Origin: Propionibacterium freudenreichii subsp. freudenreichii
Lineage (GTDB): Bacteria; Actinomycetota; Actinomycetes; Propionibacteriales; Propionibacteriaceae
Assembly: GCF_000940845.1 (NCBI RefSeq)
Contig: NZ_CP010341.1
Span: 1,800,001 to 1,832,000 of the forward strand
DNA: 32,000 nucleotides
Direction: 5' to 3'
Positions 1 to 26,132 of the stretch are shown here, piece by piece; within the stretch, counting starts at the first letter, position 1; the number at the start of each line of letters is the position of its first letter. The notes beneath the pieces are model-generated. The model was not told where the DNA came from. It saw only the letters and a program-made list of their open reading frames with translations, and ran no database searches. Made by a program: the position numbers and the translations under genes.

Positions 1-56
1 CCGGCCCTGTGAGCCGCGCCGCCTGCCTCACCGGGGTCCCCCTCGGTTTGGCCCGG

Positions 57-1166
57 TCAAGCCCCGCTGGTGACCCACGCCTTGGTGACGGCCTCGCTGC
101 GCTTCACTGCGGGCGCTTCGGAGGTGACAGTGCCGACCAGCACGCGCCAGGTCCCCTGACTCGTGTCGATGTGTGGCGACGCGTCCGTTGGGCTCCAGAG
201 CACGTTGTCACCACTTTGCCGGCACGGCCCGGCCGCGCAGAGAAATATAGGGGAGTAGTTATCAGAACTGATATCAAGCGCGCCGTCCGCCTTCGCCCGG
301 TACTGAGATCCGTCATCGGTTTCAATCCAGATGGGCTCTGAACCCGAAGCCGATCCACCGGTCGCGACTGCAACATTCTTGTACCGGATAAAGGTCCGGG
401 GTTGCGCGTCGACACACAGGATGTTCACGCTGCCGGCGCCCGTGGAGGGCTCGAGCCAGCAGGCCTCCGCGCCCGTGACAAGGGCGGGCGAGCAGTCGAA
501 CGACTCAAGGATTGAGCCACTGGTCGTGCACTCGAGGGCGCTGGCCGCTGACGGGTCACCGCTGCGAACAGTGACTCCCGGATCGAGCTGCCCGTTTGCA
601 AGGAGTGGGGAAGCCGAGAGGATCTGGGTGCGCGCCACGGACGATGGAGACGGCGCGGCGGTGGGGCCCTGACTCGGCGAAGCGGGGGCGCTCGGGGCCG
701 ATGTCGCCGGATGTTGCGCCTGCAGGCTCTTGTCCTTGGCGGCGATCTCGTCGGCCGATGTGCTGAGGGACGCCGAACCGAAGGGGTTGGCGCTCTGCTT
801 GATCGTGAAGCTTGGCATGTCGGGGGCGGTGAGCGTATAGCCGCTACCGGAGCTGCGCGCGATGTGCGCTTGCCAGCCCTGTCCGGTGGTCTGGTTGGTG
901 ACCTGGGCCACGGTCGACTTGTCCACGTGGGCGATCACGGCCTCGTAGCTGACATCAATGGTCGCTGAGTTGCCGGCGCCGGTCGACGCACTGGGCGACG
1001 AGCCGCCTGCAGGCGTGGCCGAGGCTGAGGCCGCCGGGTTCACGGTTGTGCTGAACCTGTACGACGCACCCTCTGCGAGCATGCGTGCATTGCGAAAGGC
1101 GTTGCCGGCTAGGCCTCCGGCGATGATCAGGAGCAGCGCCAACACGACGATGAGGACTCGTTTCAT
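57..1166 (-). CDS. hypothetical exported/membrane-anchored protein (369 aa)
   Basis: ORF 57..1481 trimmed to the internal ATG at 1164-1166 (MKRVLIVVLALLLIIAGG..., N-terminal hydrophobic anchor). ATGA stop/start overlap with the upstream zinc-ribbon ORF. Ser/Ala/Pro-rich linkers followed by a Cys-containing C-terminal domain. No family recognised. Confidence 0.55.
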   Translation of the reverse strand: MKRVLIVVLALLLIIAGGLAGNAFRNARMLAEGASYRFSTTVNPAASASATPAGGSSPSASTGAGNSATIDVSYEAVIAHVDKSTVAQVTNQTTGQGWQAHIARSSGSGYTLTAPDMPSFTIKQSANPFGSASLSTSADEIAAKDKSLQAQHPATSAPSAPASPSQGPTAAPSPSSVARTQILSASPLLANGQLDPGVTVRSGDPSAASALECTTSGSILESFDCSPALVTGAEACWLEPSTGAGSVNILCVDAQPRTFIRYKNVAVATGGSASGSEPIWIETDDGSQYRAKADGALDISSDNYSPIFLCAAGPCRQSGDNVLWSPTDASPHIDTSQGTWRVLVGTVTSEAPAVKRSEAVTKAWVTSGA

Positions 1167-1492
1167 CACACCCACCCCCACAGGTATCCCGCGAAGAAGC
1201 TGACGGAGAAGAGGAGCACTGCACCCACCACCAGCAGGACGACTGCCCACGGCGTGACGGCCGCGGAACCGGCGGTTGCTTGCGGCGCACTGCCGGGAGC
1301 GGTGACCACGGCGGGCGCCTCCGCCCCATAGCCCTGGGCGGGCTGCCACAGGGGTTGGTTCCCCGGGGGCGTCGGCGAGGTGGGAGGCATGGTCGCCTCC
1401 GATGTCAGCGGGGCCACCGGCGTCCCACATTGCTGGCAGACGGTGGCGCCGGTGGGAAGAGGAGCACCGCAATTTCCGCAATAGAGCTGCAT
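1166..1492 (-). CDS. zinc-ribbon domain membrane protein (108 aa)
   Basis: ORF 1166..1546 trimmed to the ATG at 1490-1492 (MQLYCGNCGAPLPTGATVCQQCGTPV = CxxC-x11-CxxC zinc ribbon). Pro-rich linker and C-terminal hydrophobic helix (WAVVLLVVGAVLLFSVSFFAGYLW). TGA overlaps the ATG of the next gene. Confidence 0.6.
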   Translation of the reverse strand: MQLYCGNCGAPLPTGATVCQQCGTPVAPLTSEATMPPTSPTPPGNQPLWQPAQGYGAEAPAVVTAPGSAPQATAGSAAVTPWAVVLLVVGAVLLFSVSFFAGYLWGWV

Positions 1493-1549
1493 GACATGTT
1501 CCCTATCTGGTGCGCCGAGCAGGCAGAAACAGATGCTGGGCAGCAAGGG

Positions 1550-1572
1550 CAGGAACTCGCCTTGAATCGCTC
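1550..1572 (-). repeat. possible fifth, strongly decayed relic of the ychF 3' end (R5)
   Basis: Plus-strand ggaactc(gcc)ttgaatcgctcat aligns to copy R3 ggaactc(caccacga)ttcgatcgctcat. Shared 7-mer, 11/13 block including the 9-mer atcgctcat (= ATGAGCGAT on the minus strand), 5-nt gap. Same orientation as the other copies, about 60 nt upstream of the zinc-ribbon gene. Confidence 0.3.
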
Positions 1573-2177
1573 ATCTGCATTCGTCGCGCGGTCAGCGGTC
1601 CGCGCGTTCCTCTCGGGTGGGGGTGAGGAAGATCGAGAGAATAATATCGGAACTCATGGGTTCCTGTGGTCGGGGTCGGGACTCGTCCTTCCCCGTCGGC
1701 CCCACCGAGCCGACGGTACGTCTCCGCGCCATGTGAACGACTCGAGCCAATGGCATGCCCGTCTGCGGCGAACGCGGGGCCCGCAGAGTCTTCTGTCCCG
1801 TCTAGGCGACCAAGTGACGTTTGATTCCGACAACCTCGTCACGCAACGTCTGTAGCTCTGGTCGGTCACCGGTCACTCGAAGGATCTGCCGTCACAGGCC
1901 TTGGACGGACAGCCACACCCAAGCCCCGAGGTCACGCCAACCCGACAGCAACGAGTTCCCTCAGCCGCCAAATGACCCTCCCAGTTGACTCGCATTCCGC
2001 TAGGGCGGCTCAGCCGTGACGGATATCAGGGCACCAACTCCATCGGATGAGCAGTCGGCGGGACCACACAAGCATCCCGCCCGGACAGGGACGGACTGTC
2101 GTCGGCAGGTGACGTCTTATAGGACTGATGGCAGGCCAGCCCGTCGATTCGACCACGAATTGCCCTCACGCTTCGTC

Positions 2178-2735
2178 TCATGCTCCGGAGAGCCTTGCGT
2201 TCACGTCATCTCCCGACCATCCCATGGGGGGACTAGGAACATGCCAAAATGGCTTGGAATACATGTGCTTTCCATTGGTCAACTCCACGTCAGCACGAAA
2301 CATGTAGCCCACCATGGTGGAGTAGTCGAACGGTGGGACGCTCAGTGAAACCGCCCACGCTTCGCTAGTTCCCGACGCAAGGTTCACGGGATCCCCGAAG
2401 CCGGTTGGTGGCAAACCAGCTCTAGACAGTGTCGGAATGTCATTCACCGAACCCATGGCGGGTTCTTGAGTTGATTCGGAGGACTCCCCCACGAGCTCAA
2501 AGCCGAGCCGGGCGATCGCGATGGGAGCACCCTCGGTGGTTACGGTGACTGTCACGTAGGACCGAGTCGAAACGCTCTTCCCATCCCCCGCCGGAATCCC
2601 AACTGACTGTGACTGACAAGTGACATATTTCCGACGGCGATTCGTCCACCACTCCGCCAACCTCACCACAGCAAGAACGATCGAAATGATTAAGACCGCG
2701 AGCCCTATCCAGTTCACGGCGAGCGACGCACCCAC
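2178..2735 (-). CDS. hypothetical single-pass membrane protein (185 aa)
   Basis: GTG start at 2735 preceded by gagggggaaagcta (SD-like). N-terminal TM helix (WIGLAVLIISIVLAVVRLAEWW) followed by RRRK, then a beta-rich soluble domain. No family recognised. Lower-GC island DNA. Confidence 0.5.
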   Translation of the reverse strand: MGASLAVNWIGLAVLIISIVLAVVRLAEWWTNRRRKYVTCQSQSVGIPAGDGKSVSTRSYVTVTVTTEGAPIAIARLGFELVGESSESTQEPAMGSVNDIPTLSRAGLPPTGFGDPVNLASGTSEAWAVSLSVPPFDYSTMVGYMFRADVELTNGKHMYSKPFWHVPSPPMGWSGDDVNARLSGA

Positions 2736-2812
2736 TAGCTTTCCCCCTCACCCCAGGTTCCCGAACCAGATGTTGTTCCAGCCACCGGGGCCCGCGTCCC
2801 AGTAGCCATAGC

Positions 2813-2851
2813 TCAGACGTTGAACCGGAACTCCACCGCGTTCCGGCACAT
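2813..2851 (-). repeat. relic of the canonical ychF 3' end (R4), encodes MCRNAVEFRFNV*
   Basis: Minus strand reads atg tgc cgg aac gcg gtg gag ttc cgg ttc aac gtc tga. It shares ggtggagttccg (12 nt) and aacgtctg (8 nt) with the real ychF end, and gaactccaccgc (12 nt, plus strand) with copy R2. It lacks the 5-nt insertion present in R1-R3. Confidence 0.7.
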
Positions 2852-3031
2852 AGGTACATCTGAACACGGGGTTCACGTGCGCCCTCTCCCCACGGTCAGT
2901 GCTCGCTACTGATCAGGGGACACAGGCTCACCCTCGACGTGGGTCAGCCTGCTGGACGCCACGAAGGCGGTAGCGCGCCATCACGGCGGCAGGGAACCCG
3001 GCTGAGACGCCACATACTAGGGATCTGAAGA

Positions 3032-3059
3032 GGGCTCGACCATGCCAGCGGTCGGCCCC
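3032..3059 (-). terminator. possible stem-loop at the stop codon of the 667-aa ORF
   Basis: gggctcgacc (3032-3041) and ggtcggcccc (3050-3059) can form about 9 bp with one bulged T and an 8-nt loop. No U-tract. Weak call. Confidence 0.25.
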
Positions 3060-5005
3060 TATTCCTTCGCGAGCACGGCGTTATCCGTCAGGCAGAAGTC
3101 ATCGTTGATCTTGATGACCAGCGCAACGAGTAGGCGGAGCGCTGTTAGATACGTGTGGCGGTGAACGCGGTCGTCGTCACCGTCTGCCTGTGATCCATGG
3201 AGGTAGCGGTTGCGCAGGCTAGGTCCGTTGCTGAACTCCTTATCGTTAAGGAAGTAGTTGAAGTAGCTGACCTCCGCGGCGCTGAGCAGCGTTGATCGAT
3301 GCGCCAGCCATCCGGCGCTCACCATCTCGTCAATGGCTTTCTGGCCGGCCGCCGAGTGATGGAGACAGCTCGTCACCTCGCACTCCCAGAGTTCCTTGAG
3401 CACATGCAATTGTGGCGCGCTTGCAAACGCAATTCGGTCACGATCTCCGGTCAGGATGCCCTTCTCGACCAGGAAGTCGATGTTGCGCTGTTGGTACTCG
3501 TGGAACTGGTCGTAGGCGATGTCATTGGCGATGACCAAGTGGAGGAAGCTCTCTGCCTCCAGATCGCTGCTGATGTGCACCAATCCGGATTGGTCCGAGA
3601 AGAGCAGGTGCTGAATTCCTTGGATGTCTGCGTTGTTGGCAACGTAGGCGTACTTATCCACAACCTGACTCGGGATGTCGCCGTAGGAAAGCTGCCCCGA
3701 TGTGATTGTCAGCAGCTCCGGGTCAACCTCGCCGTAGTCGACATGCAGCGTGAACTGCTTGAGGACGCTCTCCATCTCTGAGAACAGATGGCGGCTCTTC
3801 TCAAGGTAGGTAGCGGTCGGGCTGGAGGCGCGGTACTTCAGCCCCTTGGCACCGAACTCCTGCTCAAGGTAGTCCGTGAAGAACCAAGCGATGACCAACT
3901 CGAGCTCTATACCTTCGGAGCTGAGGAAGCGCTCGTACATCAAGGTCTGGAGCAAGGACGCCTGGTCCTGGAGCCTGAACGCCGCCCCCGTCCGGTAGTC
4001 GCCCTTGCCCGGCGTACCCATGAACCGCTCGAAGACGCCAAGTTGCGCTCCGTAGGAAGGGAGTTCCAGGAGCATGTGGTCGTTGGCGAACTGGAACAGG
4101 TGAACGAAGTTATTCAGGATAGTCGGGTAGTCGAGGTTCTCCGTGAGCCAGGTTCGACTGTAGGAGTACTTGCCAACCATGCCGTCCAAAGACTTGACGA
4201 CCTCTTCGACCTGATCGGCCGAGATGCCCACTTCGCAGCCGGTCTTGATCCCCTCCGTGGACTCGAACATCTTCTTCGTGAGCGCATCTGCCTTGCGACG
4301 AGCCTTTAGCTTCAGTCGTGCATCGACGCCGGTGTTCTTGTCAGCTCGTGCGGATGCGATCAGCTTGACGAAGTTGAGGTTGGGCTCTTCCTCATCGAGG
4401 TAGCGGTCAAACAGGCCACGCTGATCCGCGGGAGTGAAGCTCTTCGGAAGATGGATTGGATCCCGCCCCTCGGACTGGAGGAACTTCCGCGCAAGCAGCT
4501 CAGCATTGCGCGGCCCAGCGAGTAGCAGGGCCCGAATCTCCTGGTCGTAGGCACGCACGAGTGCCTGGCATGAGAGCAGATCGTGCGGGTGGAAACTCTG
4601 CTCTTGAAGTGCAGCAAGCACGATCGAGTCAGTGCAGCGCTCGAAGACCTTGTTCTTTCCGAGGAGGTCGAGGACGTCTGTGCGGTACTGAAAGTCAACG
4701 TCCTGAACGAGCGTTGAGAAGGTGGCGTCAGTCACTTTGCCGAAAAACCTGCCGATGACTTTCCGGATCTCGGGGCCGTGCGCCAGAGGCGCGTCTCGCT
4801 CTGCTTCGGCCAGGTCCTTCGGGAGAACTTTGTGTTCTAGGAACAACGCGAGATGATGCAACTCAACGATGTCGTTTATGCCTTGATCGCCACGAGTAGC
4901 ATCGAATTCACGGACGAGCTCTAGGAGGCGGTCGGCCTGCCAGAAGGTTCCGTAGTCGCTGAGGCCGAAGAACTTCAGTCTCTTCTCTGGTCCGCTTTCC
5001 GACAC
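3059..5005 (-). CDS. large hypothetical protein with C-terminal HEPN-like RNxxxH motif (648 aa from GTG 5005; ORF open to 5062 = 667 aa)
   Basis: Long uninterrupted ORF in lower-GC DNA. GTG at 5003-5005 is preceded by gggagggagattcga (strong SD), so it is preferred over GTG 5062. C-terminus reads ...FSNGPSLRNRYLHGSQADGDDDRVHRHTYLTALRLLVALVIKI (R-N-x3-H followed by a helix). The remainder is helical with no recognised family. Confidence 0.65.
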   Translation of the reverse strand: MSESGPEKRLKFFGLSDYGTFWQADRLLELVREFDATRGDQGINDIVELHHLALFLEHKVLPKDLAEAERDAPLAHGPEIRKVIGRFFGKVTDATFSTLVQDVDFQYRTDVLDLLGKNKVFERCTDSIVLAALQEQSFHPHDLLSCQALVRAYDQEIRALLLAGPRNAELLARKFLQSEGRDPIHLPKSFTPADQRGLFDRYLDEEEPNLNFVKLIASARADKNTGVDARLKLKARRKADALTKKMFESTEGIKTGCEVGISADQVEEVVKSLDGMVGKYSYSRTWLTENLDYPTILNNFVHLFQFANDHMLLELPSYGAQLGVFERFMGTPGKGDYRTGAAFRLQDQASLLQTLMYERFLSSEGIELELVIAWFFTDYLEQEFGAKGLKYRASSPTATYLEKSRHLFSEMESVLKQFTLHVDYGEVDPELLTITSGQLSYGDIPSQVVDKYAYVANNADIQGIQHLLFSDQSGLVHISSDLEAESFLHLVIANDIAYDQFHEYQQRNIDFLVEKGILTGDRDRIAFASAPQLHVLKELWECEVTSCLHHSAAGQKAIDEMVSAGWLAHRSTLLSAAEVSYFNYFLNDKEFSNGPSLRNRYLHGSQADGDDDRVHRHTYLTALRLLVALVIKINDDFCLTDNAVLAKE

Positions 5006-5436
5006 TCGAATCTCCCTCCCGGTAGGCGTCACTCTATACAGTTCGGGGGCGCCTAGTGGCACGAATTTGAAGTTGTTGCCTGATCGTGCAGCAGTCCCCT
5101 TGGGCGGAGCCGTCGTCCACGTCGATCGTTGCGCCGGCTCCTCGTTCTGTCGTGGAAGCGAGCCGAACTAGCGGCGCATCACCCCGAGGCGGACACGACC
5201 TACGTCTCCATGGGCATAATCCCGCGCCCCATCGGGCTCCTCCCCACCGCGGAGCGGCGCACGACGGACGATGCACAACTACGCGGGTAGGTCCCTTGCA
5301 AAAGCGCCGGGCACTAGTCCTGACTCAACACTCGACAAGAATCATCAACGAATCTCACTAGTTATTGATGGGCCTACCCTGGTTTTTCGGACACTTGATG
5401 TGGCGGGGCCTGGTGGCCCTGGGGGAAGGTGTTGTC

Positions 5437-5742
5437 ATGAGCACGGGGAACGAGAAGACGCGGAGGCAGCGTCGCAAGTTCACGGCACAGTACCGCCATG
5501 AGGCGGCGAGGATGGTGATCGACTCGGGTCGCACGATCGCCGAGGTCGCCCAGGAACTGGGGCTGGGTCCCCAACTGTTGGGCAGGTGGGTGAAGGCAGA
5601 GAAGGAGACCATGACGCCGAGCACGTTGAGTCCGGATGAACGCGAGGAGTTGAAGCGGCTCCGCAAGGAGAACGCGGACCTGCGGATGGACAACGAGTTC
5701 TTGGGAAAAGCAGCGGCCTTCTTCGCTGCGAAGCATCAGTGA
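5437..5742 (+). CDS. IS3-family transposase OrfA (HTH, 101 aa)
   Basis: ATG 5437 after gggggaaggtgttgtc. MSTGNEKTRRQRRKFTAQYRHEAARMVIDSGRTIAEVAQELGLGPQLLGRWVKAEKE... is a typical IS3/IS911 OrfA with a leucine-zipper-like tail. Confidence 0.85.
   Translation: MSTGNEKTRRQRRKFTAQYRHEAARMVIDSGRTIAEVAQELGLGPQLLGRWVKAEKETMTPSTLSPDEREELKRLRKENADLRMDNEFLGKAAAFFAAKHQ
5703..5709 (+). promoter_or_regulatory. candidate programmed -1 ribosomal frameshift heptamer G_GGA_AAA (IS3 orfA to orfB)
   Basis: In the orfA frame the codons are ttg gga aaa gca, giving the X_XXY_YYZ pattern gggaaaa. The -1 frame is open from here into orfB (..LGKSSGLLRCEASVSEKYTLMQ..). Confidence 0.5.
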
Positions 5743-6360
5743 GTGAGAAGTACACGCTGATGCAGGCGGAGAAGGCTCGGTACCCGATTGCCCGGATGGC
5801 CCGCCTGTTGAAAGTGTCCACTTCCGGGTACTACGCGTGGGTTGCGGCCCAGCAGCGGGATGGGGATCATCTTCTCCCCAGCCTCCGGGCGCGTCGGCGC
5901 CTGGATGAGGCGGTGCGCCGCATATGGGTGGACTCCCGAAGCACGTACGGGTACCTGCGTGTGTGCGCCCAGCTTCGCCGTGAGGGGGTGGTGGTGGATC
6001 GTAAGACGGTGGCGGCCTTGATGCGCCGTCAGGGCCTTGCGGGCATCAGCCCGCGCCGGTTCCGTCCGGTGACGACGATACCGGGGACGCGCACGCATTC
6101 GATCCCTGACCGGGTCAAGCGACACTGGGACACGGGGCAGGTGGATCGCGTGTGGGTCACCGGCATCACCTACCTGAGGACGCGGGCCGGGTGGGTGTAC
6201 CTGTGCGCCATCAAGGACGCTTGCTCCCGGAAGGTCATCGCAACCGCCATGTCGACGACCATGACGACGGACCTCGTGGAGGAGGCGTTGCGTTCGGGCT
6301 CGCATTCTTCGCCCGAACGCGCCCAGGAAAGTGATCATCCATTCCGACCGTGGCACGCAA
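5739..6360 (+). pseudogene. IS3-family transposase OrfB, N-terminal part (frameshifted, truncated by IS30 insertion)
   Basis: YPIARMARLLKVSTSGYYAW... and ITYLRTRAGWVYLCAIKDACSRKVIA (HTH_21 and start of rve). The best-matching reading moves from frame 0 (..LVEEAL) to frame 2 (AFGLAFFARTRPGK*) to frame 1 (VIIHSDRGTQ) between about 6290 and 6333, implying two indels. Confidence 0.8.
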
Positions 6361-7857
6361 GGTGAATTCAACTGGTCGTCGCAACACCTTGACCGTGGAG
6401 GTGTTCAGCTGTGGCGACGAGGGACTGGGCCGCGAAGACGAGCGATGTGCCCGAGGGTGCGCGTCGGCAATGGCGTGCGGATCGGGCGTTGCGTCCGCCG
6501 ATGCGTTCGCCCGGGCGGCCTGAGCCCTCGCGGGCGGTGCAGCGGCAGTTCTGGCGTCTGATCGCGACGGGCATCACCTCAGCCGAAGCGGCTCTGAAGG
6601 TGGGCGTGTCTGTGCCGGTCGGGTCCCGTTGGTTTCGCCACGCTGGCGGCATGCCACCGATCTCACTTGCCGAGCCCAGCGGCCGTTACCTGTCCTTCGA
6701 GGAGCGTGAGGAGATCGCGCTCCTGCGCGCCAAGCAGGTCGGCGTGCGTGAGATCGCGCGCAGGATCGGCCGCGACCCGGGAACGATCTCCCGCGAACTG
6801 CGCCGCAACGCGGCCACGCGCAGCGGGAAGCAGGAGTACCGGGCGTTGGTAGCGCAATGGAAGGCTCAGCAGACAGCGAAGCGCCCGAAGACGGCGAAGC
6901 TCGCGACCAACGACCGGTTGCGTGAGTACGTTCAGGAGCGCCTCGCCGGAAACGTCTGTCGGCCTGACGGCAGCATCGTCGTGGGGCCGGAACCGCCGGC
7001 ATGGAAGGGGCTGAACAAACCTCACCGGCAGGACCGGCGGTGGGCGACCGCGTGGAGCCCGGAGCAGATCTCGCACCGGCTGAAGGTCGACTTCCCGGAT
7101 GATGAATCCATGCGCATCAGCCACGAGGCGATCTACCAGTCGCTGTTCATTGAGGGCCGTGGTGCGCTCAAACGCGAGCTCGTCACGTGCCTGCGCACCG
7201 GCCGCGCCCTCCGGCAGCCGCGGGCTCGAGCACAGAACCGCCCGCAAGGTCACGTCACCGCCGATGTCGTGTTCTCCGAACGGCCCGCAGCAGCCGCGGA
7301 CCGCGCCGTGCCCGGGCATTGGGAGGGCGACTTGATCATCGGCACGGGCCGGTCCGCGATCGGCACTCTCGTCGAACGCAAGAGCCGGTCGACCCTGCTG
7401 GTGCACCTGCCGAGGCTGGACGGGTGGGGCGAGGCGCCGCCGATCAAGAACGGGCCCGCGTTGGGCGGCTACGGCGCAGTCGCGATGAACGCCGCGCTCA
7501 TCGCGTCGATGATGAAGCTCCCCGAACAGCTCCGCAAGACGCTCACCTGGGACCGCGGCAAAGAACTCTCCGCGCACGCCCAGTTCGCGCTCGAGACGGG
7601 CACGAAGGTGTTCTTCGCCGACCCCCACTCGCCCTGGCAGAGGCCGACGAACGAGAACACCAACGGGTTGCTGCGGCAATACTTCCCGAAGGGCACCGAC
7701 CTCTCACGATGGTCCGCTGAAGACCTCGAAGCAGTCGCCCTCGCACTGAACAACCGACCCCGCAAGAGCCTCGACTGGAAGACCCCCGCCGAAGTATTCC
7801 AGGAGCAGTTACACTCGCTCCAACAACCCGGTGTTGCAACGACCGGTTGAACCCAGG
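6361..7857 (+). mobile_element. IS30-family insertion sequence (1497 bp) inserted in IS3 orfB
   Basis: Terminal inverted repeats ggtgaattcaactggtcgtcgcaacacc versus reverse complement of the right end cctgggttcaaccggtcgttgcaacacc. 3-bp direct duplication caa at 6358-6360 and 7858-7860. Removing 1500 nt restores HSDRGTQ|FTSEQMYE in frame. Confidence 0.9.
6501..7850 (+). CDS. IS30-family transposase (449 aa from ATG 6501; ORF opens at GTG 6411)
   Basis: N-terminal HTH (FWRLIATGITSAEAALKVGVS; REIARRIGRDPGTISRELRRN). DDE region with HWEGDLIIG, TLTWDRGKELS and NENTNGLLRQYFPKGTDL. The stop lies inside the right IR. Confidence 0.9.
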   Translation: MRSPGRPEPSRAVQRQFWRLIATGITSAEAALKVGVSVPVGSRWFRHAGGMPPISLAEPSGRYLSFEEREEIALLRAKQVGVREIARRIGRDPGTISRELRRNAATRSGKQEYRALVAQWKAQQTAKRPKTAKLATNDRLREYVQERLAGNVCRPDGSIVVGPEPPAWKGLNKPHRQDRRWATAWSPEQISHRLKVDFPDDESMRISHEAIYQSLFIEGRGALKRELVTCLRTGRALRQPRARAQNRPQGHVTADVVFSERPAAAADRAVPGHWEGDLIIGTGRSAIGTLVERKSRSTLLVHLPRLDGWGEAPPIKNGPALGGYGAVAMNAALIASMMKLPEQLRKTLTWDRGKELSAHAQFALETGTKVFFADPHSPWQRPTNENTNGLLRQYFPKGTDLSRWSAEDLEAVALALNNRPRKSLDWKTPAEVFQEQLHSLQQPGVATTG

Positions 7858-8148
7858 CAATTCACCTCCGAGCAGATGTATGAGTGCTGCCGGGAACTCC
7901 ACCTCGACCAGTCAATGGGACGCACCGGGGTGTGCTGGGACAATGCGATGATCGAATCCCAGTGGTCCGTGTTGAAGGCTGAGTTCTACGACCGCTACGA
8001 GTGGGACACCCCCCAGCAGGCCATTCAGGGCGTGGAGGAGTGGATCTACGACTTCTACAACACGAAGCGCCTCAACTCAGCGATCGGCTACCAGACCCCA
8101 GTCGAGTTCGAAGCCCAACACGCGGCAGCCCTGACACGGGCCGCCTGA
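7858..8148 (+). pseudogene. IS3-family transposase OrfB, C-terminal part
   Basis: (Q)FTSEQMYECCRELHLDQSMGRTGVCWDNAMIESQWSVLKAEF...KRLNSAIGYQTPVEFE is the rve-domain C-terminus. It continues 6331-6360 in frame once the IS30 is removed. Confidence 0.85.
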
Positions 8149-8184
8149 ACCAATCCAACCGTCCGAAACTTGCGGGTAACCCCA

Positions 8185-8743
8185 GGACCCGTTCCATGTG
8201 GTGGCGTTGGCCGGGGACAAGATGAACCAGACCCGGCAACGAGTGCAGCGGGAACTCACCGGCGGCCGGGGCCGCCGCGACGACCCGCTCTACAAGGCCC
8301 GCCGCCTCCTCCACACCGGTATCGGTCTGCTCACCGAAAGGCAGAACACTCATCTGGATGCGCTGTTCGCCACCGATGACCACGCCGAGGTCGAGATCAC
8401 CTGGAGCGTCTACCAGAACATCATCGCCGCCTACCGCAACCCCGACCGGACCGCAGGGAGGACGGCGTTGTCGAGGCTGATCGACGCGATCAAGACCGGC
8501 GTCCCGAAAGGGCTGGAGGAACTGGCCCAGCTGGGGCGGACCCTCCACAAGCGCCGCTCAGACATCCTGGCGTTCTTCGACCATCCGGGCACCTCGAACG
8601 GTCCAACGGAAGCGATCAACGGCCGTCTCGAGCACCTCCGCGGCATCGCGCTCGGGTTCCGGAACCTGGCCAACTACCGACTCAGGTCACTCCTCGAAGC
8701 CGGCGGCTTCAGACCCCTGCTCCACTCATTTCTGTGAAGAGCC
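8185..8743 (+). pseudogene. ISL3-family element remnant (3' third of transposase plus right IR)
   Basis: The reading frame from 8186 (DPFHVVALAGDKMNQTRQRVQ...GPTEAINGRLEHLRGIALGFRNLANYRLRSLLEAGGF) parallels residues DPFHVVQLAGD...GPTEALNGRLEHLRGSALGFRNL of the full ISL3 at 12750-14185. It ends in ttctgtgaagagcc (ISL3-type IR). The 5' two-thirds are missing, replaced by IS3. Confidence 0.85.
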
Positions 8744-8834
8744 CGATTCAATATCGCGATTGCGAGAGCCAGCGACCCGGCGGCGGCCCCGACGCGCAGC
8801 TTCCTTACCCGCGGGACCACGCCAGCCAAACCAA

Positions 8835-11810: not shown

Positions 11811-11813
11811 GGG

Positions 11814-12749
11814 TCAGTACCGCTCGATCACCGAGACGGTCTGCCCCGACCGAAGCGACGTGAGATTCTGCTTCAGCTCGTGCATGACCGAGAACGGCAC
11901 CGAGTACCCGAAGACGACGAGACGCTTCAGATCGAGCTCACCGGCCTCGAGCTTGGCCACGAGCGCCATCACGTCGTCGCTGTCGAGTCCCGACTCGATG
12001 ACGTAAGCGGAGTCCTCGCAAACCTTCAGCTTGTAGTCATCGAGCCCCACGTCGTTCACCTCAGGCGTCAGGCCGAAACCGTCCTGAACGAGCCAAGTAG
12101 AAAGCGCGACCTGGTCTCCCGGCGTCCCGTGGGACGCAAACTTCGACACGAAATCGCCAGCAAACATCACGCCGTCCTCATTAGGATCGAAGGCCTGAAG
12201 CTGATCGAGCGTCTTCTCACTCGGCTTCTCGAGACGGAATAGACGGAAGCCGTAGTCGATCGTAGCGTTCGACTGATTCTGAATCTGTTCCGCTGAAGCC
12301 TGGATCCGCATCCGGCCAAGCTGGTCGATGGTATCGAATCCTGCCGTCGCCGCTTTCGTGCCGGGCGCTACCTTCTCCGGCCACTGGACTGCAATGTGGC
12401 GACGTGTCCCCGCGTCCTCAGCATTCAACTGCATCACCGCATGAGCGGTCGTTGCCGACCCTGAGAAAAAGTCGAGAACCAGCGCGTCGTCGGGCGCGAA
12501 CGAAACCAAGTACTTAATCAACGGGACAGGCTTCGGATATGGGAAGGGGCAACCCATCTCGGCAAGCGCGTTTCCCGCTGTCTCGACCGTCCCCAGATTC
12601 ATGAGCACGGTCAGAATGTGCTGTTGGTCCGCACGCCGGATCTTGACGTTGTCGATGGCTCCCGTGTTCGTGAGTTCGAAGACCGTGTCCTGCCCCTTGG
12701 AATCAACAACCGGGGCATACTCGCCAGCAATGAAGCTCCGCAGCAAAGC
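11814..12749 (-). pseudogene. mod: type III DNA methyltransferase Mod, C-terminal part (split by ISL3)
   Basis: ..LLRSFIAGEY...PYPKPVPLIKYLVSFAPDDALVLDFFSGSATTAHAVMQLN (AdoMet motif I FxGxG). Joins 14186..15213 in frame after removing the IS and one TSD copy (1028 + 928 nt = 652 codons). Confidence 0.88.
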
Positions 12750-14185
12750 GGCTCTTCACGATTGAGGGTGTAGTTGGGGTCTGAATCCTCCGGCCTCGAG
12801 GAGACTGCGGGCAATGTAGTTCGTCAGGTTTCGGAAGCCCAAGGCTGAGCCGCGCAGGTGTTCCAGTCGGCCATTGAGGGCTTCTGTCGGGCCGTTGGAG
12901 GTGTGGGGGCGCTCGAAGTAGGCCAGGACGTCTGTGGCGCGCCGCTTGAGGGTGCGCCCCAGGGTGATGATCTCAGCGAGGGCGGCGGGAACGCCGCGGC
13001 TGATGACCTCGATGACGTGGGCCAGCTGGGCTCGCCCGGCCTTGGGGTCGGGATCGCGGTAGGCGGCCACGATCTTCTGGTAGATGCCCCAGGTGGCTTC
13101 CACCCCGACGTGAGCGTCCTGGGCGAAGACGCCCTCCAGGCGGGTGCGTTGCTTGTCTGTGAGGAGATCCATCCCGGTGTGCAGGGTCTTGCGCACCCCG
13201 TACAGGGGATCCCCGGACCGGCCTCGATGTCCGGTGGTGTCTTGCTGGACGCGCTGGCGGCAGTGGTCCAGGGCATCGCCGGCGAGCTGGACGACGTGGA
13301 AGGGATCCATGACCTCCACCGCGTCGGGGAGTTCTTCCTTCGCTGCGGTCTTGAACCCGGTGAAGCCGTCCATGGCGACCACCTCAATCCGGTCGCGCCA
13401 CGCAGGGTCTTGCTGGCTGAGCCACTCCTTGAAGGCCTTCTTGGAGCGGCCCTCCACCATGTCCAACAACCTGGCAGGACCCCTTCCCTCGCGCAGCGGG
13501 GTGAGGTCGATGATCACGGTGACGAACTTGTCGCCCCTGCGCGTGTGCCGCCACACGTGCTCGTCCACCCCGATCGTGGTCACACCCTCGAAGCGATGCT
13601 CATCGTTGATGAGGACCCTGCGTCCCTCCTCCAGGACGGAGGTGTTGGCGCAGTCCCAGGACACGCCCAGACCCTCAGCGACCCGGGCGACGGTGAGGTG
13701 TTGGACGACGATGCCCGCCACGGGCCCAACGCAGTCCGCCCCGGGACAGTTTCGAGCGCGGCTGGGCCGCCCCAGTGGTGTCCTGCCTCCACACACGCCC
13801 ACACCCCGAACAGCGGTAGCGACGCACTCGCACCACCAGTGTCACCGGTCTCCAGCCCGAGGGCTCGTGGGCGAGGCGACGGACCACGGTGTCGCGGGGG
13901 ATCCCTTCGCACCCACACTCGCGACACCACCGGTCATCGTCCACCACCCGGCAGGCCACCTCGCAGCGATCCGGGAGGACTCTCTGGCCCACCACCACGA
14001 GGCCGAGGTCATCCAGGCGGGCGAACGTGGTCAGATCGGGGGCAGCAAAGGTAGCGTGGGACACGTCGGGGTCTTTCAGATGGGCAGCGTAGGAACTCCC
14101 ATCATCGGAAGACCCCGACCCTCACACCCACCCCGACACGCCAGCCAGACTCAACCCCCCGCTACACCCCGGATCGCGAAGAGCC
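12750..14185 (-). mobile_element. ISL3-family insertion sequence (1436 bp) inside mod
   Basis: IRs ggctcttcacgattgagggtgtagttgggg (12750->) versus reverse complement of the other end ggctcttcgcgatccggggtgtagcgggggg. Perfect 8-bp target duplication agcaaagc at 12742-12749 and 14186-14193. Confidence 0.92.
12756..14064 (-). pseudogene. ISL3-family transposase, frameshifted
   Basis: The N-terminal zinc-finger part (13675..14064: ...CRECGCEG...YRCSGCGRVWRQD...SRGGLRWA) and the DDE part (12756..13802: ..VAGIVVQHLTVARVAEGLGVSWD...) are in different frames. The switch is near tgggcccgtggcggg (about 13735-13750). Confidence 0.85.
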
Positions 14186-15213
14186 AGCAAAGCACCGTTG
14201 GCCCAGCCGGTCCGTGCCGTCACTCGGTTGATGAGCTTTCCTCCCGCGATAACCAAGTCCACGTCGTAGTTGGGAAACTTGTCGGTTCTCGCGGGGATAA
14301 TCCCTTCGTCGAAGCCAGCTGGAAACCCGGGTTCCAGGACGATCTCGGAGACAGGGTTCTTGGGACCATTCTTGACGACCGAGTTGCGGATCTCGTCGTT
14401 GAACAGCTTGCTCTCGTCGGACAGGTTCGGGTCCTTGACTCCGGCGATGAACATGTCTGGCACACGCTTCGCATACATGTGCACGTACTCGTGATTGATC
14501 TTGACTGTCGCCTGGTTGTCAAGATTCCCATCGGTCCGCCACGCGAAACTCGCGACGAAATTCTGTTCGCCGAACACCTCATCGCACAGCGCCTTGAGAT
14601 TCGCCTGCTCGTTGTCATCGATGCTGATGAAGATGATGCCGTCGTCAGCGAGCAATTCTTTCGCAAGCTCGAGTCGGGGATACATGAAGGTAAGCCACGC
14701 CGAATGCGACGACTTGCCTTGGAGCGCCATCACCCGCTCGGCCTCGTCCTCGTCAAGACCCACCTTTTCGACCAGGTCCTTCGCCGTGAAGCCGAAGTCG
14801 TCGACGTAGACGAACCCATCGGAACCCGTGTTGTACGGCGGATCGATGTAGATGCACTTGACCTGGCCCGCGTACGACCCCAGTAGGTGCTTGAGCGCAT
14901 CCAAGTTGTCACCGACGATGTACAGATTTTCCGACTCAGCGTTCGCCGCCTCAGCGTTGTGCTCGAGGTCAGGGACCATGACCGTCTCGGTCCGCGTCGA
15001 GGTCAGGTACTTGGCGTAGGACTTCCCGAGGAACTTGAGCTCGTAGCCTTCCCTCGTCATCGAAACGTCCGCGGAACTCAGCGCCTCCTGAAGGCGGTCG
15101 AGCCTGAAGCCGCCATCCTTGTCGAAGTACTCCGGCAAGACCGAGCGGAGGCGTGCCAGCTCAAAGTCGTTCGGCTTCGTGGTCTCGTTCGCTTCGTGCG
15201 CGTCCCTGATCAC
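14186..15213 (-). pseudogene. mod: type III DNA methyltransferase Mod, N-terminal part (split by ISL3)
   Basis: GTG start 15213 overlapping the TGA of mini-ORF R3. Catalytic motif IV CIYIDPPYNTGSDGF. The ORF track reading (14122..15213) runs on into the ISL3 IR. Confidence 0.88.
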
Positions 15214-15269
15214 TTCTTACCCCCAGACGTAATTCCCGTACGGAACTCCACCACGATTCGATCGCTCAT
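15210..15269 (-). repeat. ychF 3'-end copy R3 = 19-codon mini-ORF MSDRIVVEFRTGITSGGKK*
   Basis: 39/45 identity to ychF 17122-17166 over the core. Its ATG overlaps the TGA of the 312-aa ORF (ATGA). Its TGA overlaps the GTG of mod (GTGA). Confidence 0.85.
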
Positions 15270-16204
15270 AGTCCGAAATACTCCTTAAATCTCTGCCACA
15301 AGCTGCGATCTTCAGCACCTTCGCCGTGAGGCGCTGCCTGAACGAACTGCACGAAATAGGGCGTGCCGAGTATCACTCGACTCACGAAAGCTTCGCGGTT
15401 GGTCGACGCCGGCCCCCAGTTGAGGTAACTAACTTCAGCACCATCACCGGAGGTCGGGCAGTCGTGTACATCCAGACACATGAACGCAATTTCAACGTTC
15501 TGCTCACGAGAGTCGCTTAGAAGGTTTCTCGCCGCCAGGGCATAGTAGGGATCTCGCAACCAGCGTTCGTCACTATCCTCGCGCTCCTCCCCCAGCATCT
15601 TCGCTCTGAGGAGTTCGAACAGGTGCTCCGTTTGCGATCCACCCCGCCAGTCGGAAACGCTCCCGCCAAGCACCGTCTTAAGCTGACCTTCTGCCGTGCC
15701 GCTGAGCACCACCCAAGTTACGGATTGCGCTTCGTGCACGGGAAGGGTGTCTGGGATCTCAATCAGCCAAAGCCCAAGCCTGGGCGCATCCTCGAGCTCG
15801 TGCGGTTCTCTGAAATCATCATGGGTTCGGATGGCGAAACGGGTTGCTCCTCGGAAGTGATAATCGCGCCCCGGCTCGAACGCGGCACCGCGTTGAGCCG
15901 CAAGTGAGTGCGCTGTCACGTCGGCGAGAACCTCGGGCGCGACCGCGAGGAGCTGACTACGATCGGTGCGGTCGGATACTACGTTCGACTTCACTCCAGC
16001 TTCAAGAGCCCCGCTCACGATGAGACCACCCACGACACCAGCTGGAGAGACAGCGCCGACCCCTTTGGTCTTCGTGCTCGCGCTGTACGAGTGATCGGCG
16101 ATCGTGTGCCTACCAGCGATTAGCGCATCGGCAACCTTGTTTAGCCCTACGTAAAAAGCTCGCGACTGATCAAAGGACGGAGCACCCTCCATGTCGAGTC
16201 TCAT
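15266..16204 (-). CDS. hypothetical protein (312 aa), no recognised family
   Basis: ATG 16204 overlaps the TGA of mini-ORF R2 and is preceded by ctggggggaagaa (SD-like). Gly/Ala-rich hydrophobic stretch GVGAVSPAGVVGGLIVSGALEAGV near the N-terminus. Lower-GC island DNA. Confidence 0.6.
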   Translation of the reverse strand: MRLDMEGAPSFDQSRAFYVGLNKVADALIAGRHTIADHSYSASTKTKGVGAVSPAGVVGGLIVSGALEAGVKSNVVSDRTDRSQLLAVAPEVLADVTAHSLAAQRGAAFEPGRDYHFRGATRFAIRTHDDFREPHELEDAPRLGLWLIEIPDTLPVHEAQSVTWVVLSGTAEGQLKTVLGGSVSDWRGGSQTEHLFELLRAKMLGEEREDSDERWLRDPYYALAARNLLSDSREQNVEIAFMCLDVHDCPTSGDGAEVSYLNWGPASTNREAFVSRVILGTPYFVQFVQAAPHGEGAEDRSLWQRFKEYFGL

Positions 16205-16260
16205 TTCTTCCCCCCAGAGGGTATTCCGCTACAGAACTCCACCGCTTCACGCTTCGTCAT
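16201..16260 (-). repeat. ychF 3'-end copy R2 = 19-codon mini-ORF MTKREAVEFCSGIPSGGKK*
   Basis: 36/45 identity to ychF 17122-17166 over the core. Its TGA overlaps the ATG of the 312-aa ORF (ATGA). Its ATG lies within the last 14 nt of the 292-aa ORF. Confidence 0.85.
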
Positions 16261-17125
16261 CAGGATTACTCAGCCCCCCGGCCTCGGTTCCGATGGACCG
16301 GTCCGAGTGCGCAAGCCTAAGTTGTCCGTCGACGAACTGAGCGATTCGTCGATCGAATCGCTCACCGTGCTTGACCTCACGTCCACCAAAATAGTCTCCG
16401 GACTTGTCTCGCCAGACGAAGGCTTCTGAGAGTCCGTTCTGATAGATCTTCAACAACTGCGGGACGCCGCCGACTGTGCGGACATCGGCGTTATCAATCA
16501 GCCGCTGAAGCACCTGGAGGGGTTCCCAGTCGAGATTCGCCCTCCGCGCCTGCTCGGCTGCCTCCGGATGACCACTGAGCGGACGCGGTGCATTCTTCTC
16601 GTTGAGAATCTGGTAAAGATTCGCCCTAGCTTCCTGGCTAGCGTCACCTGCGAAATAAACCCCGTATGCAGTCGATTCATTCAAGTCACTAATAGACTTC
16701 ATCACCAACTCACCGCGACTGTCGTAACTATACGAGTACGCTTCAAACCGGAGGCGACGCCAAGACCACCCGAATAGCACGACATCGAGGTCCGGAACAT
16801 TAGCCGTCATTTGGCCCCAGGGAAGATCTCCGACGTCTTGACGGCTATCCGCATACAGGTCTCGCAGCTTGTTGGCGAGATATCGAATGTCAGTGCGCCC
16901 GATTTCATTGCCATCAAGTAGCAAGCACGCGTTCATCGCCTGAAGCACGAATGCATACGCCGTTGTTGCGTGTCCTGACATCGCTATTGCAGTCGCCGGA
17001 CGGGGAAGCGGGACAAGCTTGGGGCAACGGTCCCAGCTCTCACCACCGCTCAGTCGAGAGTCACTCACCGCGACCAATTCGCCGAGGGTCGCGTTCCTAC
17101 GAACCCACAACGCAACGAGTGTCAC
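16247..17125 (-). CDS. putative Ntn-hydrolase, HslV/proteasome-beta-like N-terminal domain with about 100-aa C-terminal extension (292 aa)
   Basis: GTG 17125 overlaps the ychF TGA (aagaaGTGAcactc). N-terminus M-TLVALWVRRNATLGELVAVSDSRLSGGESWDRCPKLVPL resembles E. coli HslV [23 protein letters not shown]...KKVRRL (recalled from memory). Thr follows Met, with an Asp about 20 and a Lys about 34 residues later. VYFAGDASQEARANLYQIL is comparable to AIGSGGPYAQAAARALL. Confidence 0.55.
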   Translation of the reverse strand: MTLVALWVRRNATLGELVAVSDSRLSGGESWDRCPKLVPLPRPATAIAMSGHATTAYAFVLQAMNACLLLDGNEIGRTDIRYLANKLRDLYADSRQDVGDLPWGQMTANVPDLDVVLFGWSWRRLRFEAYSYSYDSRGELVMKSISDLNESTAYGVYFAGDASQEARANLYQILNEKNAPRPLSGHPEAAEQARRANLDWEPLQVLQRLIDNADVRTVGGVPQLLKIYQNGLSEAFVWRDKSGDYFGGREVKHGERFDRRIAQFVDGQLRLAHSDRSIGTEAGGLSNPDDEA

Positions 17126-18213
17126 TTCTTGCCGCCAGACGTTAGTCCACTACGGAACTCCACCACGTCCCCGTCCTGCATCACGTATTCCTTGCCCTCA
17201 AGGCGCACGCGACCGGCCGCCTGGGCCTCCTTCATGCCGCCGTACTCGACCAGCTCGTTGAAGCTGACCACCTCGGCCTTGATGAAGCCCTTCTCGAAGT
17301 CGGTGTGGATCACGCCGGCCGCCTGCGGGGCGGTCCAACCCTTGTGGATGGTCCAGGCGCGCGATTCCTTCTCGCCGGCGGTCAGGAAGCTCTGTAGGCC
17401 CAGCGTGTCGTAACCCACCCGCGCCAACTGGTTCAGGCCGGGCTCCTCCACGCCGGTATCGGCGAGGAACTCCGCGGCCTCCTCGTCGCTCATCTCCACC
17501 AGTTCGGACTCGAACTTCGCGTCGAGGAAGATCGCCTCGGCGGGCGCCACGAGCTTGCGGGTGCGGTCCAACAGGTCGGCGTCGGCCAGCTGGTCCTGAT
17601 CGCAGTTGAACACATAGATGTAGGGCTTGGCGGTGAGCAGCCACAGGTCGTGCAACGGCTCGGGATCCAGCCCGGCCTGGAAGATGCCGGTGCCGGCGGC
17701 GAGCGTCTCATAGGCCTTGCGGTAGACCTCCGCCTTGGGTCGCGTCTCCTTGCGGATCGCGGCCTCCTTCTCCACCTTGGGCAGCACCTTCTCCAGGGTC
17801 TGCAGGTCAGCCAGCACCAGCTCGGTGGTGATGGTGTCAAGGTCGGAACCGGGATTCACCTGCCCGTCCACATGGGTCACGTCCACATCGGTGAACATCC
17901 GGGTGACCTGGCAGATCGCATCGGCCTCGCGGATATTGGCGAGGAAGGCGTTGCCCATCCCCTCACCCTGCGAGGCGCCCTTCACGATGCCGGCGATGTC
18001 CACGAAGGTCACCGTGGCCGGCACGAGCTTGGCCGAGTCGAACATCTTGCCCAGCACGTCCAGGCGTCCGTCGGGCACGCCGACCACGCCCACATTCGGC
18101 TCGATCGTCGCGAACGGGTAGTTCGCGGCAAGGGCGTCGTTGCGGGTCAGCGCGTTGAACAGGGTCGATTTGCCGGCGTTGGGGAGGCCGACGATTCCAA
18201 TGGTGAGTGCCAC
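17122..18213 (-). CDS. ychF: redox-regulated ATPase YchF (363 aa) with non-canonical C-terminus
   Basis: MALTIGIVGLPNAGKSTLFNALT (P-loop), TGS-like C-terminal domain. Ends ...YVMQDGDVVEFRSGLTSGGKK* rather than the usual ...F(R/L)FNV*. GTG start at 18213. Confidence 0.95.
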   Translation of the reverse strand: MALTIGIVGLPNAGKSTLFNALTRNDALAANYPFATIEPNVGVVGVPDGRLDVLGKMFDSAKLVPATVTFVDIAGIVKGASQGEGMGNAFLANIREADAICQVTRMFTDVDVTHVDGQVNPGSDLDTITTELVLADLQTLEKVLPKVEKEAAIRKETRPKAEVYRKAYETLAAGTGIFQAGLDPEPLHDLWLLTAKPYIYVFNCDQDQLADADLLDRTRKLVAPAEAIFLDAKFESELVEMSDEEAAEFLADTGVEEPGLNQLARVGYDTLGLQSFLTAGEKESRAWTIHKGWTAPQAAGVIHTDFEKGFIKAEVVSFNELVEYGGMKEAQAAGRVRLEGKEYVMQDGDVVEFRSGLTSGGKK

Positions 18214-18226: not shown

Positions 18227-18228
18227 AC

Positions 18229-18330: not shown

Positions 18331-18375
18331 CGCCGAGCGCGTCCACCCCTGCCCCGAACGCCGCCAATCGCAGGC

Positions 18376-26095: not shown

Positions 26096-26132
26096 GGGAT
26101 TCCTTTCGATGGACGAAGGCGTCGGCGAGCCC

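Follow-up and report, generated by a model that had tools for sequence, protein, structure and literature searches.

The gene ychF, which encodes a universally conserved ATPase, has two versions of its 3' end in the stretch of Propionibacterium freudenreichii subsp. freudenreichii DNA considered here (contig NZ_CP010341.1, positions 1,800,001 to 1,832,000), a window of 32,000 nucleotides within which all positions below are given. The live gene lies on the minus strand and terminates in a repeat, R1, while a canonical gene end, R4, lies downstream. Read along the minus strand, the order is ychF with R1, a cargo gene without assigned family (gene A), a second repeat (R2), another such gene (gene B), a third repeat (R3), the modification gene mod of a Type III restriction-modification (R-M) system, split by an ISL3 element, its partner res, debris of insertion sequences (IS), the candidate defence gene PDC-S56, and R4. 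The GC content of this segment is 56-63%, compared to 65-72% in the flanks. The segment is interpreted below as an island that was probably inserted site-specifically into the last codons of ychF.

Two ends of ychF in the window and in related genomes

From position 2851 to 2813, the minus strand runs from atg tgc cgg to aac gtc tga and translates as MCRNAVEFRFNV*. The original prediction took this for a canonical YchF C-terminus, and both the reading and the stated form of the canonical end hold. The canonical end GGTGGAGTTCCGGTTCAACGTCTGA (VEFRFNV*) lies on the minus strand at 2813..2837, where the 25-nt consensus GGTGGAGTTCCGNTTCAACGTNTRR has its single match in the window, with 0 mismatches, while none of 100 shuffled sequences contains it even with up to 3 mismatches allowed. 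A degenerate codon-level pattern for the canonical end likewise finds R4 as its sole match in the window. Outside R4, the sequence below position 2812 begins gctatggctactgggacgcggg....

The live gene ends differently. A 46-nt derived tail is present three times, at 17122-17167 (R1), 16201-16246 (R2) and 15210-15255 (R3), with a core that is common to R4; only R4 is canonical, as had been proposed. The proposed alignment of the two forms is also exact: R1 is composed of GAGTTCCG-TAGTGGACT-AACGTCTG and R4 of GAGTTCCG-GTTC-AACGTCTG, with 9 nt in the middle of the former and 4 nt in the latter. A difference of 5 nt does not correspond to whole codons; the live gene therefore passes through the native stop in another frame, as ACG-TCT-G.., and terminates in the purine-rich stretch beyond it, which lengthens YchF by 6 residues (363 aa, compared to 357 aa in the FRFNV allele). 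The live protein has the G domain and the C-terminal YchF/TGS domain of a YchF/OLA1 ATPase, matching the Pfam families MMR_HSR1 (E = 6.8e-22) and YchF-GTPase_C (E = 2.5e-37), the latter over profile positions 1-82 of 84, thus its departure from the family is confined to the extreme C-terminal end. Among its homologues in the PDB (1jal, 2dby and 2ohf), the Haemophilus influenzae YchF (1jal) aligns as ...DGDVMHFRF. The AlphaFold2 (AF2) model of the window protein is of low confidence, with a mean predicted local distance difference test (pLDDT) score of 57 and values below 50 for tail residues 358-363. A natural end of similar appearance, ...FKFNVSGGGKK, is found in the plant Obg-like ATPase 1 (PDB 5ee0_A), which aligns without gaps to the C-terminus of the window YchF; this likeness may be a coincidence, or it may be a sign that a short Gly/Lys extension is tolerated.

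To place the two ends in a wider context, tails were surveyed in 80 actinobacterial loci fetched with YchF, of which 78 have complete ychF ends and 2 incomplete ones. The complete ends comprise 58 of the form EFRFNV*, one EFKFNV*, 10 close variants and 9 extended tails of the derived type. These 9, from Cutibacterium, Tessaracoccus, Propioniferax, Friedmanniella, Parenemella, Trueperella, Citricoccus and Kocuria, are distributed patchily over the Propionibacteriaceae, Actinomycetaceae and Micrococcaceae, and extended tails are also seen in 31 of 120 database homologues of YchF. Within P. freudenreichii, YchF proteins are 99-100% identical to that of the window and, apart from isolated substitutions, nearly the same up to ...DGDVVEF, after which at least 9 tails besides the window's own occur, including RFNV, RFAV, RHAT, RFGKA, RHS and RSGLASR, as well as FKFAPVTPGKS (alleles P0417-P0429). 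The commonest allele in the species, present on 44 contigs, is 357 aa in length and ends in RFNV after ...DGDVVEF; examples are CEG92899.1, CEH04844.1 and CEI46608.1, encoded on contigs of up to 2.74 Mb. This distribution indicates that the derived tail is strain-specific, rather than shared by close relatives, and that the canonical tail is ancestral. Judged from these sequences, the variety of tails suggests several distinct occupants of the ychF site.

Seven other genomes also pair a live derived tail with a canonical ...VEF(R/K)FNV* relic, at a distance of 2.3-16 kb downstream (L numbers denote individual loci): Tessaracoccus (L008), Propioniferax (L011), Parenemella (L026), Trueperella bernardiae (L030), Corynebacterium heidelbergense (L091), a Jonesiaceae bacterium (L097) and Calidifontibacter (L098). 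The relic in the window is therefore not a piece of some other gene family; membership in a different, intact family is what the original prediction had named as telling against it. The DNA between the junctions of the related loci is mostly co-directional with ychF and consists mainly of defence genes (Type I, II and III R-M systems and ATPases), the first of which often has a GTG or ATG start that overlaps the ychF stop. Outside the relic itself, blastn and tblastx comparisons of window positions 1-3060 with all fetched loci revealed no synteny, and two metagenome scans, for the predicted empty ychF junction and for the sequence just below R4, gave no match.

Some loci have features of their own. 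In Parenemella (L026), a longer duplicated ychF 3' fragment at 17300-17425 is followed by the same sequence as the relic at 15459, and a third relic is located at 17966. In Cryobacterium (L100), ychF ends in ...FRFQVTSSTQK* at 7963-8004, with a GTGA overlap into a homologue of gene B, and after the next gene, at 9483-9530, comes another tail-like junction in degenerate form (VEFWDGIASAAQGKK..).

Proposed attachment sites and recombinases at ychF

For each pair, the left arm taken from the relic (P) was combined with the right arm taken from the derived tail (P') to reconstruct the attachment site of the element (attP). The result is about 54 bp in length and has imperfect dyad symmetry, CAGAYGT-N10-CGGAAC-[GYGGTGGA]-GTTCCG-N10-ACGTCTG. 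Compared with the reverse complement of P', the P arm has 18/24, 19/24 and 14/24 identical positions in three elements encoding a large serine recombinase (LSR) and 13/24 in the window, where the inner motifs of the R4 P arm and the R1 P' arm (CGGAAC/GTTCCG) agree at 6/6 positions and the outer motifs (CAGATGT/ACGTCTG) at 6/7. In the right half-site, all eight pairs share one geometry, with P' reading GTTCCG-N10-ACGTCTG and the corresponding native arm (B') GTTCCG-N5-ACGTCTG. The distal motif ACGTCTG thus lies 5 bp further out in the right half-site of attP than in that of attB. A shift of the same size is described for serine integrases, in which the motif bound by the zinc-ribbon domain (ZD) is displaced by 5 bp between attP and attB half-sites (PMC3783163). 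On the strength of these sequence comparisons, the 5-nt difference between the two ychF ends, which the original prediction attributed to an insertion, would be better read as a built-in offset between attP and attB half-sites; the length difference and its effect on the frame stand, while an insertion mutation in the live gene is the less fitting reading.

Every one of the 23 sites listed has the dinucleotide GT at spacer positions 4-5, and although GT is constrained by codons in the live genes, it is kept in the non-coding relics too. Differences between the arms of natural attL and attR sites confine the putative crossover to the interval from spacer position 4 through GTT. Within the tails, the serine codon is TCT in 13 of 16 cases, whereas TCT accounts for 1.1% of serine codons in the core genes of the window, and the GGN codons beside it vary freely at their third positions; this excess argues for a constraint on the motif at the DNA level. 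A target-site duplication generated by transposition was considered and ruled out, since attP is palindromic and the left arms of attL and attR are unlike each other all the way to the spacer.

The recombinase associated with these sites is an LSR of 510-518 aa, to whose family WP_285119318.1 belongs. In Cutibacterium namnetense and Kocuria rhizophila, the enzymes encoded by the ychF islands are 74% identical to each other, and the YchF proteins of these genera share only about 65-78% identity with that of the window. When homologues of the LSR were looked up independently of ychF, four of five were located a few genes downstream of a ychF with a derived-type tail (in C. heidelbergense, Trueperella pyogenes, a Jonesiaceae bacterium and Calidifontibacter). 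The LSR is present in six related islands (L001, L054, L091, L092, L097 and L098) and is a pseudogene in that of Propioniferax, while among the 80 genome loci no homologue was found at those with canonical tails. In one P. freudenreichii strain, such an LSR (MDK9661420.1) follows, by four protein-accession numbers and on the same contig, a ychF (product MDK9661416.1) ending in ...TGLTSGGKK. Past the LSR, intact elements encode ArdA, a relaxase, a NikA/MobC-like protein, DUF3223, a protein of about 1000 aa and HTH_17, after which the relic is reached. The protein of about 1000 aa has exonuclease and family-B polymerase motifs (FDTEF, D.D.QS.YP, K...NS.YGKLAQ and TTDGF), by which alone it was recognized, as it has no match in Pfam, NCBIfam or PDB sequences. 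The LSR gave only matches of 33% identity or less in tblastn searches of plasmid and phage collections, is only about 32% identical to actinophage integrases, and no free attP was found when viral contigs were scanned for the exact pattern of the tail (0 matches).

In Calidifontibacter (L098, 9955-10001), the LSR gene directly follows ychF with no cargo between, the tail is shortened to VEFRTGLTSKK*, and the relic is written in rare codons (GTTTAGATTTAAC), as if the end had already been rewritten by an earlier element. Rare codons are also seen at loci of a different kind. Many loci with a canonical live end in rare codons have one to four native-looking relics downstream and lack this LSR; for example, in L041 (11086) and in L009, L018, L003 and L019 (11074), the live end uses codons that are rare at high GC (AGA TTT AAT) and the downstream relic is host-like (CGC TTC AAC). 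These codon patterns suggest that the ychF end is also exchanged for a synonymous one by other element families. The repeat runs tens of nucleotides beyond the stop in L018, L028, L049 and L076. Arrays of canonical ends (...RN.VEFRFNV*) lie downstream of ychF in Demequina mangrovi (L044, at 11086, 11719, 13585 and 14394) and in a metagenome-assembled genome of the Microbacteriaceae (L069, at 1065, 2091, 3318, 4210 and 7061), with 4-5 copies spaced 0.6-2.9 kb apart and conserved left flanks (…CGGCTACGGAAC…); no LSR of the family studied is encoded within 10 kb of either array.

Content and probable origin of the island

The features of the island are collected in Table 1. The P' arm of R1 (17122-17158) reads GTTCCG-N10-ACGTCTGG...AAGAAGTGA. 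Gene A has 363 homologues at E <= 0.001, and most of the best 150 align their residue 1 to residue 1 of the open reading frame (ORF), which indicates that the overlapping GTG inside AAGAAGTGA is the real start; no match was found in Pfam, NCBIfam or PADLOC. The P' arm of R2 ends in AAGAAATGA, the ATG of which is the start of gene B. In the three contexts of gene B examined, the gene directly follows ychF in Cryobacterium (L100) and Scardovia (L102) and lies 3.3 kb beyond a FRFNV* relic in Rothia (L101). Gene B had no match in Pfam, NCBIfam or PADLOC, and its AF2 model (pLDDT 74) had no significant fold match in the PDB.

Table 1. Features of the ychF island in the window and of the sites that bound and divide it
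Feature	Position	Strand	Remarks
ychF, 363 aa	17122..18213	-	Pfam MMR_HSR1 and YchF-GTPase_C; last 9 residues SGLTSGGKK encoded by putative element DNA
R1, proposed attL	17122..17190	-	B arm 17167-17190; 8-nt spacer GTGGTGGA 17159-17166; putatively element-borne P' arm 17122-17158
Cargo gene A, 292 aa	16247..17125	-	No family assigned; GTG start overlaps ychF stop (GTGA)
R2, proposed internal junction	16201..16269	-	Degenerate left arm; spacer GCGGTGGA 16238-16245; partly decayed P' arm
Cargo gene B, 312 aa	15266..16204	-	No family assigned; 25 homologues in a large protein database
R3, proposed internal junction	15210..15278	-	Spacer GTGGTGGA 15247-15254; intact P' arm, its GTG being the mod start
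Type III mod, split by ISL3 element	11814..15213	-	Pfam N6_N4_Mtase and T3RM_EcoP15I_C; PADLOC MTase_III
ISL3 transposase ORF within mod	12756..13802
Type III restriction enzyme res, 991 aa	8835..11810	-	PADLOC REase_III, E = 1e-252
IS debris	5365..8737	+	Located where intact elements hold the LSR and backbone
ISL3 fragment	8198..8737	+	Pfam annotations of the same genes in L081 and L082
IS30-type transposase	6411..7850	+	Pfam annotations of the same genes in L081 and L082
IS3-like fragment	about 5365..6365	+	Call from reading the translation only
Candidate defence gene PDC-S56, 667 aa	3059..5062	-	Last island gene before R4; PADLOC PDLC05039, E = 1.5e-246
R4, proposed attR	2813..2863	-	P arm CAGATGT-N10-CGGAAC 2840-2863; spacer GCGGTGGA 2832-2839; native end 2813-2831

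The R-M unit links the window directly to an intact element. R3 and the start of mod (window 14567-15255) are 86.6% identical to positions 4994-5682 of L091, which include the attL tail of the C. heidelbergense element, and res is 95.6% identical in amino acids and 92.5% in nucleotides to the cargo of the same LSR element, while ychF is only 69.8% identical in nucleotides between the window and L091. This homology ends at the res stop codon, where the LSR is located in L091 and an ISL3 fragment in the window. In other strains mod is intact (651 aa); its ISL3 insertion is found in some strains only, and the same IS is present in L083. The window encodes no LSR homologue, and no remnants of the LSR, relaxase, polymerase, MobC, HTH_17 or ArdA were found in it (best tblastn E = 0.25; E = 0.59 for the polymerase-like protein of L091). 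No tyrosine integrase was detected among the island ORFs scanned. Between ychF and res, neither a promoter-like site nor a minus-strand terminator-like site was found, although this constitutes weak evidence. In R4, the native ychF end (2813-2831) reads GTTCCG-GTTCA-ACGTCTGA, with the putative crossover GT at 2835-2836.

Other features of the window lie outside the island. Just beyond R4, the roughly 0.8 kb from 2001 to 2812 have a GC content of only about 60% and no family match, and contain an ORF of 185 aa (2178..2735) with a predicted N-terminal membrane segment and no match in Pfam, NCBIfam or PADLOC; this stretch may be older foreign DNA. The gap between the ychF start and an M18 aminopeptidase gene (18228-18348) contains three tandem copies of a 34-nt unit (CCGTCGACCCGTTCCAACCGCCCGCAGCCACCGG). 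At 30994-31041, a perfect 48-bp palindrome consists of GATGATGAGGGGCCCCGGACACCA followed by its reverse complement, and two program-called ORFs start within it in opposite directions with identical N-termini. Finally, two diverged direct repeats at 25586-26624, which are 71% identical and about 570 bp apart, are coding sequence for an ASCH domain, one copy being a separate gene and the other the C-terminus of a thioredoxin-domain protein.

With a probability of about 0.78, R4 is the attR and R1 the attL of a 14.3-kb composite island (2840-17158), inserted site-specifically by a recombinase of the LSR family in the last codons of ychF. In this model, elements of an actinobacterial family integrate by means of the LSR through a crossover that would fall inside GTG-GTG-GAG (Val-Val-Glu) of ychF. 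The P' arm of each element would serve as a substitute gene end (...GTTCCG-N10-ACGTCTGG-GGNGGNAAGAAG-TGA), such that after integration ychF would read into the arm and terminate in ...SGLTSGGKK*, while the native FNV* end would be left on the far side as a non-functional relic. The frame change would follow from the geometry of the LSR sites, with the distal motif 5 bp further from the crossover in attP. A ribosome-binding stretch rich in purines and a start codon that overlaps the stop of ychF would also come with the tail, and through them the first cargo gene may be translationally coupled to this housekeeping gene. R2 and R3 are putative internal junctions from the tandem accretion of three units, the first being gene A, the second gene B, and the third the Type III R-M unit plus whatever came after it. 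The recombinase and the mobilization and replication backbone (LSR, relaxase, PolB-like polymerase and HTH_17) would since have been lost, with IS elements in their place, and the island would be a fixed remnant in this strain. The most fitting description is a remnant of ychF-targeting LSR elements, formed by accretion and since decayed. Two claims of the original prediction are supported in this light: that R4 is the displaced original end of ychF, for which the distribution of tails, the recurring relic pairs and the foreign intervening DNA speak, and that an island-borne tail rewrote the last residues of YchF, as P. freudenreichii alleles are the same up to ...VEF and then differ.

Several observations weigh against this model. 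As the window contains no recombinase, the agent is deduced from relatives, and one LSR homologue, that of Schaalia (61% identity), is not located at ychF. Canonical serine integrases recombine only attP with attB, and not attP with attL or attR; tandem attP-like internal junctions would therefore require either a relaxed choice of partners, which has been reported for the recombinases of the staphylococcal cassette chromosome (SCC), or assembly before integration. The left half of attB has no convincing distal motif at attB spacing. The left arms of R2 and R3 barely resemble the conserved P arm, as do those of small islands lacking the LSR (4/24 in L030, 5/24 in L011 and 9/24 in L008), and the cargo genes at R2, R3 and these small islands end at the spacer or within 15 nt of it. 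The tails are related by descent, and the TCT codon statistic thus overstates their independence.

A more elaborate proposal is rather doubtful, namely that the 3' end of actinobacterial ychF hosts an integron-like cassette platform built on serine-integrase sites, in which units are captured serially, expressed by read-through and translational coupling from ychF, and mobilized in trans by LSRs that resident or visiting elements encode. Each unit would bring its own copy of the tail, ribosome-binding stretch and overlapping start, with a left arm that is scarcely conserved. Short units of a single gene are found at these loci, measuring 921 bp for gene A, 991 bp for gene B and 730 bp for a zinc-ribbon gene in Propioniferax, and the arrays of 4-5 repeats in Demequina and the Microbacteriaceae genome would be further instances.

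Among the alternatives, the one that survives best, though unlikely, accepts the att sites as real and attributes the window island to another process, either a different recombinase (e.g., a tyrosine integrase supplied in trans) or a hotspot at which homologous or illegitimate exchange took place repeatedly; LSR-encoding pipolins (discussed below) would then be just one of several occupants of the site. It accommodates the missing LSR of the window and the unconserved left arms of R2, R3 and the small LSR-less islands, and a tyrosine integrase is indeed encoded near a relic in Rothia (L101). It also draws on the many loci with canonical live ends and downstream FRFNV* relics, some in arrays, that lack this LSR, where the recoding of the live end with rare codons (AGA TTT AAT) implies that other element families use the site. 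However, derived-type P' arms show a specific association with this LSR family, the cargo end of an LSR element is nearly the same in sequence as R3, mod and res, and the palindromic attP with its N10-versus-N5 half-site geometry fits serine integrases.

An origin in place, in which a 5-nt insertion shifted the frame of the live gene and a small segmental duplication copied its 3' end with no mobile element involved, is highly improbable. While one indel of 5 nt is enough to align the two ends and a longer duplicated ychF 3' fragment exists in Parenemella, the same tail is found in distant genera although sister strains of the same species keep FRFNV, the tail is repeated before each cargo unit, and the intervening 14.3 kb are foreign in composition and 92.5% identical to Corynebacterium DNA. 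That SGLTSGGKK is simply the normal YchF C-terminus of the lineage, and FRFNV* at 2813 a chance match or part of another gene, is scarcely credible given the exact consensus match set against the shuffles, the FRFNV ending of the commonest allele and the relics of seven other genomes, even though the relic is covered, in a different frame, by a program-called ORF of 120 aa (2497..2859). Mechanisms of the Tn7-like, Xer/dif and integron types were ruled out, as no corresponding genes or sites are present.

Insertion of LSR elements at ychF would explain why the last residues of a universally conserved ATPase are hypervariable within one species, as the occupant of the site writes the tail. It also provides a precise, sequence-derived candidate model of the att sites (attP of about 54 bp, attB of about 44 bp and a crossover at GT) for actinobacterial serine integrases whose target was previously known at the gene level only. 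By combining a recombination half-site, a ribosome-binding site and an overlapping start, the tail may offer an element a way to commandeer the expression of a housekeeping gene for its cargo. The ychF site is, furthermore, a practical marker for defence islands in Actinobacteria, including dairy Propionibacterium, in which restriction systems limit genetic manipulation and phage sensitivity matters.

Comparison with known systems

The nearest relatives are the LSR-encoding pipolins of Actinomycetota, for which ychF is a published integration site (Mateo-Caceres et al., Nucleic Acids Res 2024, PMC11551731). They share with the window the target gene, the phylum, the presumed type of recombinase and the carriage of defence systems (PMC11551731). 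The intact relatives L091, L097 and L098 are pipolin-like, encoding the protein of about 1000 aa with PolB motifs beside a relaxase and HTH_17, although their identity as pipolins is based on motifs only. The window, in contrast, has retained cargo and junctions and has neither polymerase nor LSR, and is thus a pipolin remnant at best. In the portions considered, the description names the site from gene context and contains no att anatomy, replaced YchF tail or relic (PMC11551731).

The logic of the island is shared with the SCC elements (SCCmec, SCC and psi-SCC) at the 3' end of rlmH/orfX, in which an LSR likewise integrates into the 3' end of a conserved housekeeping gene, the frame is preserved by last codons that the element supplies, and each unit is recognizable by direct repeats of the gene end. 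Also in common are composite tandem islands, pseudo-elements without recombinase and frequent R-M cargo (PMC12648241). The differences lie in the phylum, the target (ychF here), and the extension of the tail with its probable translational coupling. In addition, the related LSR scores far below the NCBIfam cut-offs for Ccr proteins, with 57, 38 and 24 bits for CcrB, CcrA and CcrC compared to cut-offs of 900, 700 and 900, and the window island lacks the features that define SCC, namely Ccr recombinases and integration at rlmH.

The att sites resemble those in the model of the Listeria A118-type integrase, which combines an imperfectly palindromic attP of about 50 bp with an attB shorter by about 10 bp, places one and the same distal (ZD) motif 5 bp nearer to the center in attB, and has a central dinucleotide common to both sites (Rutherford et al., 2013; PMC3783163). 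At ychF, unlike in that model, the shift is clear in the right half-site pair only, the motifs are 3-4 bp further out, and the sites are known from sequence alone.

Accretion at the 3' end of a gene is also a feature of the integrative and conjugative elements ICESt1 and ICESt3 and the cis-mobilizable elements (CIMEs) of Streptococcus thermophilus, which occupy the 3' end of fda as tandem att-flanked units, some without an integrase of their own. Site-specific integration at a gene end and tandem integrase-less units are thus common to both systems, whereas ICESt1, ICESt3 and the CIMEs depend on a tyrosine integrase and occur in Firmicutes; to our knowledge, no rewriting of a protein tail of this kind has been described for them. 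Integrons, in turn, share arrays of short, promoterless, co-directional cassettes between recombination sites that are expressed from an upstream promoter. Here, however, there is no IntI, attI or folded attC, and the repeats are copies of the ychF end that form double-stranded sites of the serine-integrase type. The type of event and the site are already known, ychF having been published for such elements; apparent novelties are the 5-bp offset and the att model that includes it, a tail that is rewritten and putatively couples translation, and the many alternative tails within one species.

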